Shown here: positions 8,351 through 11,756 of the stretch, one piece after another
Layout: each line of letters opens with the position of its first letter
How positions within the stretch are numbered: position 1 is the stretch's first letter
Made by a program: the position numbers and the translations under genes
Source: Chlorobiaceae bacterium
Lineage (GTDB): Bacteria; Bacteroidota; Chlorobiia; Chlorobiales; Chlorobiaceae
Assembly: GCA_013335115.1 (NCBI GenBank)
Contig: JAAXWQ010000004.1
Location: forward strand, 45,974 to 109,973
Reading direction: 5' to 3'
DNA: 64,000 nucleotides
The notes under the pieces: model-generated
Seen by the model: the letters and a program-made list of their open reading frames with translations, nothing else
What the model was told of the DNA's origin: nothing
Databases searched by the model: none

Positions 8351-8572
8351 ATGGCTAATGAAAACAACCCTGTAGGCGCCGTCAACGAACTGGTTGACGT
8401 GGCATCGAAGACCGCGCAACAGCTTGCCGATACCCTCTGCGGCGGCATAAAGTCTGCTGCCGGGATGGTCGATCCCCTCGGCAAGGCATGTGTCTCCTTC
8501 CTCAGCACCGTGCTTGGTGCTGCCACCCAGCTTTTCGAAGGCGTCGCAGGTTGCTGCGCGCCGAAGAAGTGA
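8351..8572 (+). CDS. Small chlorosome envelope protein, CsmB/CsmF-like (73 aa)
   Basis: ATG at 8351 inside track ORF 8297..8572. The translation is MANENNPVGAVNELVDVASKTAQQLADTLCGGIKSAAGMVDPLGKACVSFLSTVLGAATQLFEGVAGCCAPKK. Size, an Ala/Gly/Val/Leu/Thr/Ser-rich amphipathic character, an internal PLGK and a C-terminal APKK match my recollection of CsmB/CsmF. It is colinear with the paralog at 38471..38695. A strong terminator follows. Confidence 0.6.
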   Translation: MANENNPVGAVNELVDVASKTAQQLADTLCGGIKSAAGMVDPLGKACVSFLSTVLGAATQLFEGVAGCCAPKK

Positions 8573-8593
8573 CGCTGACGACATCGTAAGAAA

Positions 8594-8629
8594 AGACCCG
8601 GGGCCGGAAGGTTCCGGGTCTTTTTTTTT
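8594..8629. terminator. Rho-independent terminator (bidirectional geometry)
   Basis: agacccgg (8594-8601) pairs with ccgggtct (8614-8621) and is followed by a 9-T run. It sits between convergent stops at 8572 (+) and 8656 (-). Confidence 0.85.
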
Positions 8630-8655
8630 CCTCCGCTGAACCGGGCCGTCCCTTT

Positions 8656-10227
8656 TCACTGGTGCTTTTCGGACCTGAAAGAATCGACGAGTCGTTCGAC
8701 CTCGAGGTTGTAATGTTCCGTGTCACCTTCCCATCCGGCGAGGCAGGGCACCAGATGACGCCTTACCTCCATTGCCAGGTCGCATCCGCTCTCTTTGTCT
8801 ACAGCGCGCCACTGTTCGAGCCGTGCCTGCCGGACAAGGCTTACCGGGAAAAGTATCCGCGTCCCCTCATCCTCCTCCCGTCTCCTGGCAATGACGACCT
8901 CCTCCCTGATCCAGGCATTGTTTATGCTGTTTTCCGAAAGGATCAGTACCACCTTCTCGTGATGCCATGCCTGTTGCGTCATATTTCCTTTGCTACCCCC
9001 CCCTTTTGGTCGGTTCCTGACGGAGAGCCAGCAACGCACCCCTTTTGACTGGAGATCTGCATGGAGGCGTTCGGCAAGGGCACGGTCCTTGTGGCTGTAG
9101 ACGATAAAGCAGGAGTAATGGTCGAGGTCTGCCCCGGAAAGCGAGTGCACGTAATGCATGAAGGTTTCCGGCACGCCGCATCCGCGAAGGAATGCATCCG
9201 GTATTTTTCCCCTTGACCTGAAAATGGTGCTGATGCTGATTTCCGAAGGTCCGGTGTATCTCGCCGTCCCGCTACCCCTGATGTTGCTGAGGTCGACATT
9301 GATAAAACCGGCGTTGCTGATCTCGGTACCGGCAATACTGGCCATGCTCAGGTCGGCGCCGGTGAAGATGGCGCCATCAAGACTGGCTCCATCCAGGATG
9401 GCGTCGCAAAGATTCGCTCCACTGAGATTCGCCCGCGTCAGCAGTGCGTCGTTGAGTTCCGATCCGCTCAGGTTCGCCATGGAGAGGTTCGCCCCCGTCA
9501 GGTTGGCGCCATTGAGCTTTGTCCATTTGAGCTTGGCATCCCTGAGGTCCGCCTCCTCGAGATCGGCATCGCCCAGTTCAGCCATGCTCAGGTCGGTGTC
9601 GGAGAGGTTGGCGTCGTGCAGGTCCGCATCGGAGAGGTTCGCATCCCGCAGGTCTGCGTCGCTGAGGTCCGCCATGCTGAGGTTCGTGTCATGAAGGTTG
9701 GCCCCGATGAGGTCGGCCCAGCTCAGTTTCGCGTCGCGAAGGTCGGCATCGCCGAGATCGGCCATGCTCAGTCCCGCGCCGCTGAGGTCGGCACCGTTGA
9801 GGTTCGCATCCCTCAGGTCGGCCTCGCTCAGGTTCGCTCCGTTGAGCTTCGCCTCACTGAGGTTGGCTCCCGTCAGGATCGCGCCGCTGAGGTTTGCATC
9901 CTTCAGGTCGACCTCGCCGAGGTCGGCGCCGCTGAGGTCGGCCCCAGTCAGGACAACCCCACACAGTTTCGCCCTCCGGAGGTTCGCTTCCCGAAGGTTG
10001 GTCGCAGAAAGATTGACGCCATAAAGACGGGCTTCATGGAAATCCGCACCCTCGAGCAGCGCCCTGCTCAGGTTCGCACCATTGAGCTTCGATCCTTCAA
10101 GGTTGACGCCTCGCAGGTCGGCGCCCTTGAGGTCGACTTTGGTAAGCTCCACGGCCGCATCGGGATGCTCCGCCCTCTCCTGGTTCCACTCGGAAACCGA
10201 CCTGAGAAGCAACTCCATGTTCATCAT
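8656..10227 (-). CDS. Pentapeptide-repeat protein fused to a C-terminal TIR domain
   Basis: Track ORF 8656..10293. The likely start is MMNMELL at 10227. Track-ORF residues ~51-340 (nt 9274..10143) are uninterrupted A(D/N)LxG/D-type pentads (ADLRG VNLEG SKLNG ANLSR ...). Residues ~392-535 (nt 8689..9120) read YSCFIVYSHKDRALAERLHADLQSKGVRCWL...KVVLILSENSINNAWIREEVVIA. That is a TIR-like beta-A strand followed by an S..W..E glutamate motif. Confidence 0.8.
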   Translation of the reverse strand: MMNMELLLRSVSEWNQERAEHPDAAVELTKVDLKGADLRGVNLEGSKLNGANLSRALLEGADFHEARLYGVNLSATNLREANLRRAKLCGVVLTGADLSGADLGEVDLKDANLSGAILTGANLSEAKLNGANLSEADLRDANLNGADLSGAGLSMADLGDADLRDAKLSWADLIGANLHDTNLSMADLSDADLRDANLSDADLHDANLSDTDLSMAELGDADLEEADLRDAKLKWTKLNGANLTGANLSMANLSGSELNDALLTRANLSGANLCDAILDGASLDGAIFTGADLSMASIAGTEISNAGFINVDLSNIRGSGTARYTGPSEISISTIFRSRGKIPDAFLRGCGVPETFMHYVHSLSGADLDHYSCFIVYSHKDRALAERLHADLQSKGVRCWLSVRNRPKGGGSKGNMTQQAWHHEKVVLILSENSINNAWIREEVVIARRREEDEGTRILFPVSLVRQARLEQWRAVDKESGCDLAMEVRRHLVPCLAGWEGDTEHYNLEVERLVDSFRSEKHQ

Positions 10228-10439
10228 GGCTACCCCTGTCTTAGAATGTTCACCCTGTCGTTGTGGACGCCACGCGATAGCGCGACGGTTCATCGATACT
10301 GCCCATTACCTTCAACAACTGTTCATCCCGCAATAGTTTGCCTTCCGGATATTTTCCCCGGCTTACCTCGTTCGTAATTTGTCGTATATTTACGGACTTC
10401 GCCGCGCCAACCGTTCTCAGAACCACTTTCAAGGAGACC

Positions 10440-11756
10440 ATGGGTACCATTTTCCAGAACGCCAGACTTATTAACCCCGCAGAAAACCTCGACGCGAAAG
10501 GGTCGTTGAGGATCGATGACGCAGGGATCATCGATCAGCTTTCGATCGGTTCCGTCATCGCGCCACTGGAGGGCGACCTGGTCATCGATCTCGAAGGCAA
10601 AGTGCTTGCCCCGGGCCTGTTCGACATGCACTGCCACTTTCGCGAGCCCGGCCAGGAGTACAAGGAGACCCTCGAATCCGGAGCGGCTGCCGCTGCCAGG
10701 GGGGGCTTTACCGGGGTCGCCCTCATGCCGAACACCCGGCCGGTCATCGACAGTCCGCTCGGCGTGGCATACATCCGGCACCACAGCGCCACCCTGCCGG
10801 TCGACCTCGAGGTCATCGGGGCCATGACCGCCGAAAGCAAGGGCGAGGCACTCGCCCCTTTCGGCAAATACAGCTCCTACGGAGTCAAGGCGGTCTCTGA
10901 CGACGGTACGGCTATCCAGGACACGCAGATCATGCGGCTGGCCATCGAGTATGCGGCGAACTTCGACCTCCTCCTTATCCAGCACGCAGAGGACAGATTC
11001 CTCAGTGCCGGAGGCATCATGAACGAAGGCCCCACCTCCGCCACGCTCGGTTTCAAGGGCATTCCCGAAGTCGCCGAATCGATCATGATCGGAAGGGACA
11101 TCCAGATGCTGAACTGGCTCAAGCGCCACAAACTCAGCGGCTCGATGCACGAGCCGAGATACCATGTCGCCCACATCAGTACCGCCGGATCGGTCGACCT
11201 GGTGCGCAAGGCCAAGGCGGCCGGCCTGAAGGTCTCCTGCGAAGTTACGCCTCACCACTTCACCCTTTGCGACGAGGATATCGTCGATGCGGTCGACAAG
11301 GGCAATTTCATCATGAAGCCGCCGCTCGCCTCGAAAGAGAGCCGTCAGGCCCTCATCGACGGCATCGTCGACGGCACTATCGATGCCATCGCCACCGACC
11401 ATGCCCCCCATGCCAAGCACGAAAAGGAGTGTCCTCCCGACCAGGCTTCGTTCGGCATCATCGGCCTGGAGACTTCGGTGGGACTGACCATCACCGAACT
11501 GGTCGACAAAAAACTGATCACCCTTTCCCGGGCGATCGGGCTTCTTTCGACCAACCCGAGGCGAATCCTCGGCCTTGAAACCATCCTCTTCAAGGCTGGT
11601 GAGAAAGCGAACCTCTGCATCATCGATCCCGAGTGCATCTGGACGGTCAACGAGGAGGATTTCCGGTCGAAATCCGGGAATACTCCGTTCATCGGCCGTT
11701 CCCTCAAGGGGCGCGCCGTGGGCATTTTCCATAAGGGCAGGTATCTCACGGATTAA
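10440..11756 (+). CDS. pyrC: Dihydroorotase
   Basis: ATG at 10440 follows AAGGAG (10431-10436). Motifs: LAPGLFDMHCHFREPGQEYKETLESGAAAAARGGFT, HISTAGSV and ATDHAPH, the amidohydrolase metal ligands of class I DHOase. Confidence 0.92.
   Translation: MGTIFQNARLINPAENLDAKGSLRIDDAGIIDQLSIGSVIAPLEGDLVIDLEGKVLAPGLFDMHCHFREPGQEYKETLESGAAAAARGGFTGVALMPNTRPVIDSPLGVAYIRHHSATLPVDLEVIGAMTAESKGEALAPFGKYSSYGVKAVSDDGTAIQDTQIMRLAIEYAANFDLLLIQHAEDRFLSAGGIMNEGPTSATLGFKGIPEVAESIMIGRDIQMLNWLKRHKLSGSMHEPRYHVAHISTAGSVDLVRKAKAAGLKVSCEVTPHHFTLCDEDIVDAVDKGNFIMKPPLASKESRQALIDGIVDGTIDAIATDHAPHAKHEKECPPDQASFGIIGLETSVGLTITELVDKKLITLSRAIGLLSTNPRRILGLETILFKAGEKANLCIIDPECIWTVNEEDFRSKSGNTPFIGRSLKGRAVGIFHKGRYLTD

Follow-up and report, generated by a model that had tools for sequence, protein, structure and literature searches.

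We analyzed a single gene on the minus strand of a 64,000-nucleotide stretch of contig JAAXWQ010000004.1, from a Chlorobiaceae bacterium (assembly GCA_013335115.1); this whole stretch is referred to as the window, and all coordinates follow its numbering. Our main finding is that the gene encodes a cytoplasmic protein of about 520 amino acids (aa), composed of a cap, a long acidic beta-helix of pentapeptide repeats, a linker and a TIR domain of the AbTir/BtpA type, and that it belongs to a large pentapeptide-linker-TIR family that appears to be undescribed. Sequence comparisons indicate that the gene is ancestral to the Chlorobaculum clade rather than recently inserted, and that it is clearly maintained there, including in genomes where catalysis must be gone. 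They also indicate that the evolutionary pattern of the family is reversed in this clade, where the repeats are conserved and the TIR domain evolves fast.

An initial annotation of the window had proposed an NAD+-cleaving (NADase) defence module. For the window genome such a role is uncertain, and in this green-sulfur lineage it is doubtful because the gene is inherited vertically and its enzyme site is eroding. We tentatively favour the view that in Chlorobaculum selection now acts mainly on what the beta-helix binds, that the TIR fold oligomerises the protein, and that catalysis is no longer the main selected role.

A widespread pentapeptide-linker-TIR architecture

Residue numbers refer to the maximal open reading frame (ORF) of 545 aa unless counted from M26; L-labels denote fetched genomic loci and P-labels family proteins. 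Both halves of the fusion were matched far beyond chance. Pfam Pentapeptide (PF00805) was found in 12 stretches (E=2.6e-91, 299 bits against a cut-off of 20.2) and Pentapeptide_4 at 3.8e-54; TIR_2 (PF13676) covered aa 396-487 (E=2.9e-16, 60.5 bits against a gathering cut-off of 28), and TIR (PF01582) scored 23.4 bits against a cut-off of 21.3. The right-handed quadrilateral beta-helix and the TIR fold discussed here are predicted models, matched to PDB by Foldseek. AlphaFold2 modelled the full-length protein with a predicted local distance difference test score (pLDDT) of 82, and the last 226 residues with a pLDDT of 83. The order in the model is an N-terminal helical cap, a right-handed beta-helix (about residues 24-306), three short helices and a flavodoxin-like alpha/beta domain. 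The N-terminal part matched pentapeptide proteins only (HetL, designed solenoids, Np275/276, QnrB1, MfpA, AlbG), and the C-terminal part TIRs only (TIR-1/SARM1, MAL, TLR15, SPARTA, RUN1, AbTir, BtpA, L6), at probability 1.00 and with TM-scores, normalised by target, of up to 0.69. The initial annotation had recognized the TIR domain of this fusion from the motifs YSCFIVYSHKD and VVLILSENSINNAWIREEV, the latter with its S..W..E glutamate. Both motifs are present, profile and structure searches agree on a TIR domain, and the domain bounds are adjusted as in Table 1. The choice between E464 and E465 as the catalytic-type Glu is settled by alignment with 85 to 100 homologues and with the W-T-N-Y-E of AbTir, which points to the second Glu of the pair, E465.

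Searched by sequence against PDB, the window protein's C-terminal region gave only weak TLR matches (E=0.0034), so that its placement beside AbTir and BtpA derives from profile and family-member searches. One family member matched AbTir at 5.9e-7 and BtpA at 4.8e-6, with BtTir and PdTIR also near, and the best TIR matches of the family profile were TIR-STING (2.4e-10) and AbTir (9e-10). The W-V-x-T-E of the family aligns with the W-T-N-Y-E of AbTir, whose aligned Glu we infer from construct numbering to be E208. A virulence-type Tcp function, that is, interference with animal TLR signalling, was ruled out on biology, the hosts of the gene being green sulfur bacteria, which are free-living anoxygenic phototrophs.

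It is conceivable that the protein is a regulator of the Qnr/MfpA type, in which an acidic helix mimicking DNA would bind a host topoisomerase or other DNA-processing enzyme and the TIR domain would oligomerise the rods, in a housekeeping or stress role unrelated to immunity. The structural match to QnrB1, MfpA and AlbG speaks for this, as do the strong constraint and fixed length of the repeat tract, the housekeeping flanks of the gene and the dispensability of catalysis in its orthologues. The net charge is -30 over the 310-aa part ahead of the linker, repeats included, which is more acidic than in all 40 family members sampled; this charge is compatible with a DNA-mimic rod, but many non-mimic pentapeptide proteins are likewise acidic. 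Moreover, none of the best structural matches (HetL, Np275/276 and designed solenoids) is a known DNA mimic, Qnr and MfpA monomers are only about half the length of this helix, and 5 of 16 related species do without the gene. In NCBIfam the window protein had generic pentapeptide matches only, with scores far under the equivalog cut-offs for Qnr (90.9 against 240) and MfpA (84.5 against 360), and also below that for HetL. The Alr5209 model exceeded its cut-off (183.5 against 125) only via five separate repeat stretches aligned to a 113-position profile. Such a regulator is an unlikely explanation.

Within the repeat tract, a 45-nucleotide (15-aa, three-repeat) periodicity extends over positions 9605-9803, with about 71% matches and 3.6-3.7 copies. 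It is apparently a trace of the old internal duplications behind the doubling of the helix, whose length is common to all 11 orthologues.

PADLOC profiles matched the TIR part alone and only at the domain level (SAVED_TIR at 5.4e-8, profile positions 13-105 of 404; ThsB at 0.0032), and no PADLOC system matched the window protein. The claim that no described defence system pairs these two domains is borne out, since neither the literature searched nor the PADLOC models yielded a description of the pentapeptide-linker-TIR family. Pfam detected no SAVED, STING, APAZ or NTPase domain in the protein, and no cyclase gene is found beside it. The weak ThsB-type matches (the PADLOC hit above, and precomputed ThsB_TIR Pfam matches on homologues) could hint at a Thoeris-like signal generator, whose TIR domain would make a messenger of the cyclic ADP-ribose type for an effector encoded elsewhere. 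We consider this extremely improbable, as no ThsA, SLOG, SIR2 or other conserved partner was seen in seven homologue contexts, in the window or at the 10 orthologous loci.

The fusion is neither rare nor unique to this genome. A search with residues 340-545 returned 841 proteins at E ≤ 1e-3, nearly all of them Pentapeptide plus TIR_2 proteins of 300-360 aa, the best match being only 48% identical to the query. The window protein is clearly homologous to them (E=3.7e-60 to P0001) but forms part of a divergent branch. The close Chlorobaculum orthologues were not among the proteins returned, and exact look-ups of the window protein with four alternative starts gave no match. Named sources of family members include Chlorobiales metagenome-assembled genomes, Terriglobales, Bryobacteraceae and Candidatus Korobacteraceae. 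The 61-residue linker by itself, used as a profile against 1.84 billion representatives, recovered 3,277 clusters at 50% identity (1,784 at E ≤ 1e-10). Pfam analysis of 98 of these clusters found Pentapeptide in 92 and TIR_2 in 69, and the remainder were mostly fragments.

The linker is a signature of the family. Its conserved form is GPSTIGIDTIYKSxGKIPEVFLRGCGVPDEFI, with invariant columns S, T, S, G, P, F, L, R, G, C, G, P and F, and the pattern GPSxIxxxT..S.G.IP..FLRGCGVP..F is found in the window protein (GPSEISISTIFRSRGKIPDAFLRGCGVPETF). The conserved TIR core comprises YSCFISYS, D, LQxxGVRCW, G and LLLILSExSxxSxWVxxE, and the C-terminal tail is conserved as well. Across 68 C-terminal modules of the family, identity reaches at least 90% in 93 columns; the catalytic Glu never varies in this set nor, across alignments, in 68 to 100 family members. 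The repeats behave differently: median pairwise identity is 0.73 for the C-terminal module against 0.53 for the repeats, a value near the floor set by the repeat consensus, and in pairs whose TIR modules are at least 85% identical the repeats are only about 55% identical.

A constant, enzyme-competent TIR domain joined to hypervariable repeats in a mobile, stand-alone gene would fit a one-protein sensor-effector, and this makes an immune reading plausible at the level of the family. A variant, P0186, points the same way: it is a pentapeptide-linker-EAD7 protein in which this effector-associated domain replaces the TIR domain. Two further arrangements were observed, P0122 (TIR-linker-TIR without repeats) and P0220 (pentapeptide-linker-coiled coil). 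Other effectors behind the linker were sought and rejected, because beyond the single EAD7 and the single coiled-coil case the non-TIR proteins looked like truncated or frameshifted TIRs.

Three cysteines, in the linker (RGCG, within FLRGCGVP), in betaA (YSCF) and in betaB (VRCW), reach at least 93% conservation across the family. All 11 Chlorobaculum proteins retain them, so that in this clade they are better conserved than the catalytic Glu. From their conservation, they could form a metal or redox site joining the linker to the TIR domain.

In seven homologue contexts the gene was always stand-alone, at a different locus each time and with no conserved neighbour. It often lay beside transposases of the insertion sequence (IS) families IS3, IS1595, IS200 or IS481, integrases, or runs of small unannotated ORFs. 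No enrichment near defence genes was apparent in the loci sampled: no defence gene lies near the window gene, and the 82 neighbours of five distant homologues, too small a sample to be decisive, gave isolated PADLOC matches (DrmC 1e-28, mad2 1e-16, REase_II 6e-12) and no complete system. Carriage by phages or plasmids as a rule has no support, with four family loci in the 2.9 million contigs of IMG/VR, no family member in 50,697 GenBank phages, and one copy, disrupted by IS256, in 72,556 plasmids.

In that plasmid copy (L093, Skermanella rosea plasmid pSR-5, 5853-9609), two adjoining IS256 transposase genes arranged back to back separate a pentapeptide ORF from a TIR ORF; recombinases and a further pentapeptide protein are encoded close by. 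One of the IMG/VR loci (L089, 2204-3517, UViG 2734482011_000003) encodes, on a putative viral contig, a 437-aa member extended at its C-terminus by a coiled-coil-like tail of about 80 aa. At L003, a separate 108-aa TIR_2 ORF (8952-9278) lies about 700 bp upstream of P0084, amid small unannotated ORFs and an IS3 transposase, and may be a second, fragmentary TIR gene.

Descent and erosion in Chlorobaculum

The descent of the gene was examined in 80 Chlorobiaceae loci fetched with PyrC as an anchor, presence being scored within 8 kb of pyrC. Full-length homologues, oriented as in the window, are located between pyrC and the csm-like gene at L009, L010, L012, L015, L017, L018 (C. thiosulfatiphilum DSM 249), L021, L023, L024 (Chlorobaculum sp. 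24CR) and L064, and L013 has a partial copy there. The presence/absence polymorphism that the initial annotation had suggested looking for does exist in the Chlorobaculum clade: about 11 of 16 species carry the gene at this locus, and five do not (L011, L014, L016, L020 and L022, the last being C. parvum). Nor was it present at this locus in any of the Chlorobium, Pelodictyon and Prosthecochloris genomes fetched. The 11 Chlorobaculum proteins are monophyletic and their divergence tracks that of PyrC; therefore a single acquisition, vertical descent and several losses are indicated. L011, L014 and L016 in particular would have lost the gene, because L064 has the same CsmA-family paralogue as these loci yet keeps the fusion gene. 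The 84-aa ORF of L011, L014 and L016 was considered as alternative 'defence cargo' and dismissed, being a CsmA-family gene (Bac_chlorC, 6e-38) that co-occurs with the fusion gene in L064.

The Chlorobaculum proteins depart from the rest of the family in length and in rate. The part ahead of the linker has 310 aa in the window protein, against 110-152 typically in the family, and the total is about 520 aa against 300-360. The repeat tract, about twice as long as in any other sampled member, is expanded in all 11 proteins. The C-terminal module has a p-distance of 0.52 within the clade, against 0.29 among 68 other members.

The catalytic signature erodes as a mosaic. The window, L009, L010, L015 and L064 retain the Glu of W-x-x-x-E. 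It is replaced in six of the ten intact orthologues (by F in L012, M in L017, T in L018, L021 and L024, and V in L023), which requires at least two independent losses on the tree, one in a subclade and one in L012. In the window, the BB-loop/alphaB segment reads GGSKGNMTQQAWHH, the family columns E, Q, I, D, A, I and R all being changed, so that the motif shared by the family and by AbTir and BtpA, G-x-x-L-x-x-x-I-D-x-x-I/L (ending in I-R in the family), is not found. This motif is lost across the subclade of the window, in which the betaA strand of L009 and L010 is also changed, and the region in the window protein is unlike that of any other family member. Of the 93 family-conserved columns the window protein retains 63 and its orthologues 55-75, against 81-93 (median 91) in other members; at L064 the TIR signature is almost intact. 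The linker and fold-core residues are kept in all 11 proteins. As a candidate for an active defence enzyme, the window gene convinces least among the members of its family.

A run of eight G (minus strand, 8996-9003) lies within the BB-loop codons (KGGG), is not conserved in the orthologues, and may be prone to slippage. That the aberrant BB loop results from a frameshift or a sequencing error at this run was considered and rejected, as the other two frames stop within a few codons.

Every examined TIR enzyme requires the conserved Glu, and the catalytic pocket lies beneath the BB loop; BB loops nevertheless differ among active TIRs, and an altered BB loop even activates ThsB (PMC10022894). 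The loss of the BB-loop motif therefore makes NADase activity less likely without being decisive.

Rough pairwise ratios of nonsynonymous to synonymous divergence (dN/dS, or omega) were 0.05-0.16 for the repeats in all comparisons. For the TIR core they were 0.26-0.38 among the window, L009 and L010, and 0.10-0.16 among the Glu-less L017, L018, L021 and L024. These values bear on whether the gene is a relic, that is, an old immune gene no longer selected in Chlorobaculum and on its way to becoming a pseudogene. The mosaic loss of catalytic motifs and several independent gene losses would agree with decay, and divergence is well above that of the neighbours: identity to the window is 39-63% in the C-terminal (TIR) region but 73-90% in PyrC and Ppk. 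All 11 copies, however, are intact ORFs of about 520 aa after a synonymous divergence (dS) of about 1 or more, omega lies between 0.05 and 0.38 in every domain, and no indel interrupts the repeat tracts over about 290 aa. A relic is therefore very unlikely, and this explanation is already disfavoured.

The module initially proposed would work as a single-gene abortive-infection system: recognition of a phage protein by the helix would bring the TIRs together, NAD+ would be depleted in an E465-dependent way, and the infected cell would stop growing. The Glu and most core TIR motifs are indeed kept in the window, L009, L010, L015 and L064, the family has the hallmarks of immune sensors, and the locus is polymorphic, with at least two to three losses in the clade. 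The fast TIR of the window's subclade (omega 0.26-0.38) could also result from an arms race. Several observations oppose this scenario. Six of the ten orthologues are conserved despite having no Glu, the window copy has lost the BB-loop/alphaB signature, and the repeats, the supposed sensor, are the most conserved part in the clade, which is the opposite of a sensor arms race. The gene is inherited vertically and stays at one housekeeping locus, its surroundings in the window contain neither defence nor mobile genes, and no PADLOC system matches it. What survives of the proposal is the family pattern, which fits an immune sensor-effector; for the Chlorobaculum gene itself, synteny, the Glu-less orthologues and the lost BB loop make an active module somewhat unlikely. 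The clade comes close to the picture of a syntenic gene without NADase, which the initial annotation had itself set against a defence role, because six of ten syntenic orthologues replaced the Glu under purifying selection.

The shift to beta-helix binding, which we tentatively favour, would have started from an ancestral ligand-gated NADase. In the family, the variable beta-helix would bind a ligand or target, this binding would allow TIR-TIR self-association, and the assembled TIRs would cleave NAD+. In Chlorobaculum, the comparisons show that the gene was gained once, that its helix doubled in length and was then frozen under strong purifying selection, and that its NADase signature is eroding as a mosaic while the ORF, the linker and the TIR fold core persist. 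The protein would now act as a stoichiometric binder or decoy for a cellular or invader protein, rather than as an NAD+-depleting enzyme. Residual or conditional NADase activity, which this explanation does not require, is possible in the window copy, because the Glu and most core motifs are kept.

Several points weigh against this preferred explanation. The window protein keeps betaA, the Asp, GVRCW, LSExS, the Trp and the Glu, and from these motifs it may be a fully active NADase. The explanation itself is built from sequence and predicted models, the ligand of the beta-helix being hypothetical. The family sample consisted of the best 120 matches, largely Acidobacteriota where named, so that the '90% conserved' columns may overstate constraint. 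Since absence was judged only over the 8 kb around pyrC, the gene could be located elsewhere in genomes scored as lacking it. Finally, dN/dS was calculated pairwise by the Nei-Gojobori method, which cannot detect positively selected sites, and dS is about 1, near saturation, which makes the omega values rough.

The gene and its locus

Features of the gene and of its immediate surroundings are collected in Table 1. The start codon is probably M23-M26, because the orthologues begin there and L010 has a stop codon just upstream; candidate start codons span nucleotides 10227-10218, and an AGGGG lies a few bases 5' of the ATG at 10227.

Table 1. Features of the pentapeptide-linker-TIR gene and its flanks, in window coordinates
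Feature	Coordinates	Strand	Basis
Maximal ORF, 545 aa	8656..10293	-	ORF list
Probable coding sequence, start M23-M26, about 520-523 aa	8656..10227	-	Orthologue alignment, upstream stop in L010
N-terminal capping helices with family W-N motif (SVSEWNQERAEHP)	10150..10218	-	Alignment; model helices 2-17
Pentapeptide-repeat beta-helix, about 58 repeats, about 14 coils	9280..10149	-	Pfam PF00805, model, Foldseek, 45-nucleotide periodicity
Three-helix linker (GPSEISISTIFRSRGKIPDAFLRGCGVPETFM...), family signature	9118..9279	-	Invariant alignment columns; linker profile
TIR domain (betaA YSCFIVYS ... W-I-R-E-E) and C-terminal helix	8659..9117	-	Pfam TIR_2, Foldseek, profile
Codon of E465 (E440 counted from M26), homologous to the TIR catalytic Glu	8899..8901	-	Alignment
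BB-loop/alphaB segment departing from family consensus (SVRNRPKGGGSKGNMTQQAWHH against APHDIKGGRKIHEQIDEAIRLH)	8959..9024	-	Alignments; pLDDT <50
GC hairpin between an A-run and a T-run, terminator-like, between convergent genes	about 8591..8630		Scanner, + strand only
72-aa small protein, convergent, csm-like, position conserved in related genomes	8354..8572	+	Genome comparison
pyrC, dihydroorotase-like amidohydrolase, divergent neighbour, synteny anchor	10440..11756	+	Neighbourhood scan

The gene is flanked by housekeeping genes. The initial description of a singleton inserted between core genes holds in that the gene is stand-alone and its flanks are of this kind; it does not hold as a recent or mobile insertion, the gene being syntenic and vertically inherited. 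The bidirectional terminator said to end the gene is partly recovered: the hairpin and its A- and T-runs are present, but the scanner calls it on the + strand only, and the two sites found in the region are no excess over shuffled sequences.

The 72-aa csm-like protein, a chlorosome protein according to the initial annotation, has no Pfam or NCBIfam match. At L011 (6803-7054), L014 (6538-6789), L016 (6806-7057) and L064 (4895-5146), the csm-like gene is adjoined by the 84-aa CsmA-family paralogue, and the locus is a small cluster of chlorosome-protein genes whose content varies between genomes of the Chlorobaculum clade. On the other side, a gene of the fumarylacetoacetate-hydrolase family (about 240-255 aa), which is present between the fusion gene and pyrC at all 10 orthologous loci and lies directly upstream of pyrC in most other Chlorobiaceae, is missing from the window (10228-10439). 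A remnant-like 20-aa match to this family remains at 10352-10411 (15 of 20 residues identical, E=7.6e-4), which suggests that the gene was deleted in the window, an event that would also have reshaped the shared promoter region.

Significance and comparison with known systems

Sensor-fused TIR domains are a recurring immune design from bacteria to plants and animals. In this context, pentapeptide-linker-TIR proteins could be widespread one-protein immune receptors, in which a hypervariable helix, possibly a DNA mimic, would be a bait for invader proteins and would switch on an AbTir-type NADase via the cysteine-bearing linker, and the Chlorobaculum branch could be a domesticated receptor. This synthesis is possible, if rather doubtful. 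The pentapeptide beta-helix has not been described before as a TIR partner, yet the family is very large, with at least 3,000 clusters. Should its members be immune receptors, the known activators of TIR domains would gain a new kind of sensor, a protein rod possibly imitating DNA, and the family would offer a simple one-gene system for studying how ligand binding reaches TIR assembly; without an immune role, it would still be a large family awaiting characterisation. The Chlorobaculum proteins form a natural series, from the near-intact signature of L064, through the subclade of the window with its Glu and altered BB loop, to a third subclade that is Glu-less yet constrained. The series would show the fate of a TIR enzyme once catalysis is unselected, and may parallel the possible origin of the non-enzymatic TIR adaptors of animals. 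Interest is tempered by the fact that TIR fusions are a well-populated theme.

Among described proteins, AbTir, BtpA (TcpB), PdTIR and BtTir are the closest solved TIRs to this family by sequence. The betaA strand of the AbTir/BtpA group, (Y/F)xxFISxS, its BB-loop/alphaB motif G-x-x-L-x-x-x-I-D and its W-x-x-x-E align with the family, and the fold agrees. This group has a coiled coil or no sensor domain, whereas the window protein has a pentapeptide beta-helix and a dedicated linker; unlike the group, the window copy no longer has the BB-loop/alphaB motif, and the Glu is gone from most orthologues.

The beta-helix is of the same right-handed quadrilateral type as in HetL, Np275/Np276, Rfr, Qnr, MfpA and AlbG, and many cyanobacterial pentapeptide proteins share the W-N type of N-terminal cap. 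Stand-alone pentapeptide proteins have 5-10 coils and no TIR domain, whereas the window protein has about 14 coils and is fused to one. It is thus a true member of the pentapeptide-repeat and TIR superfamilies, and not a Qnr or MfpA equivalog.

In the context of anti-phage systems, the Hailong effector combines pentapeptide repeats with an ion-channel domain, in a two-gene system with a nucleotidyltransferase (PMC13586616); pentapeptide repeats also occur in a phage anti-defence protein. Hailong is a precedent for a pentapeptide module in an anti-phage effector, but its output is a channel instead of a TIR domain, and the window gene has no nucleotidyltransferase partner. Nor does the window gene have the neighbours of Thoeris, where ThsB is adjacent to a ThsA effector (SIR2/SLOG or transmembrane) and to which the window protein is linked only by the PADLOC ThsB match, or the SAVED domain and CD-NTase operon of the TIR-SAVED proteins of CBASS. 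Pentapeptide repeats and TIR domains are listed separately as modules of bacterial conflict systems, in which EAD7 recruits effectors (Kaur, Burroughs, Iyer and Aravind 2020/2021; PMC7159879, PMC8195603). The modules are common to both, and the family relative P0186 carries EAD7 in place of TIR, but those conflict systems are multi-gene and centred on NTPases (vWA-MoxR, STAND, GTPase), whereas this family is stand-alone and not described there.

The nearest analogy is with proteins that couple a sensor to a TIR domain and are driven to oligomerise by a ligand: TIR-STING, TIR-SAVED (CBASS), TIR-APAZ (SPARTA), the CRISPR-associated Cat1 and TIR-NLR/STAND proteins. Such effectors appear among our structural and profile matches, and their design is analogous to the constant TIR and variable sensor of the family. 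The window protein lacks their STING, SAVED, APAZ, CARF and NTPase domains and has no partner gene, and no pentapeptide beta-helix was found described with a TIR domain in the literature searched. By analogy, we infer that the family works, at least ancestrally, like the TIR-fusion immune proteins while being a member of none of them; pentapeptide-linker-TIR belongs to the known theme of TIR and sensor fusions, and is not a categorically new system.

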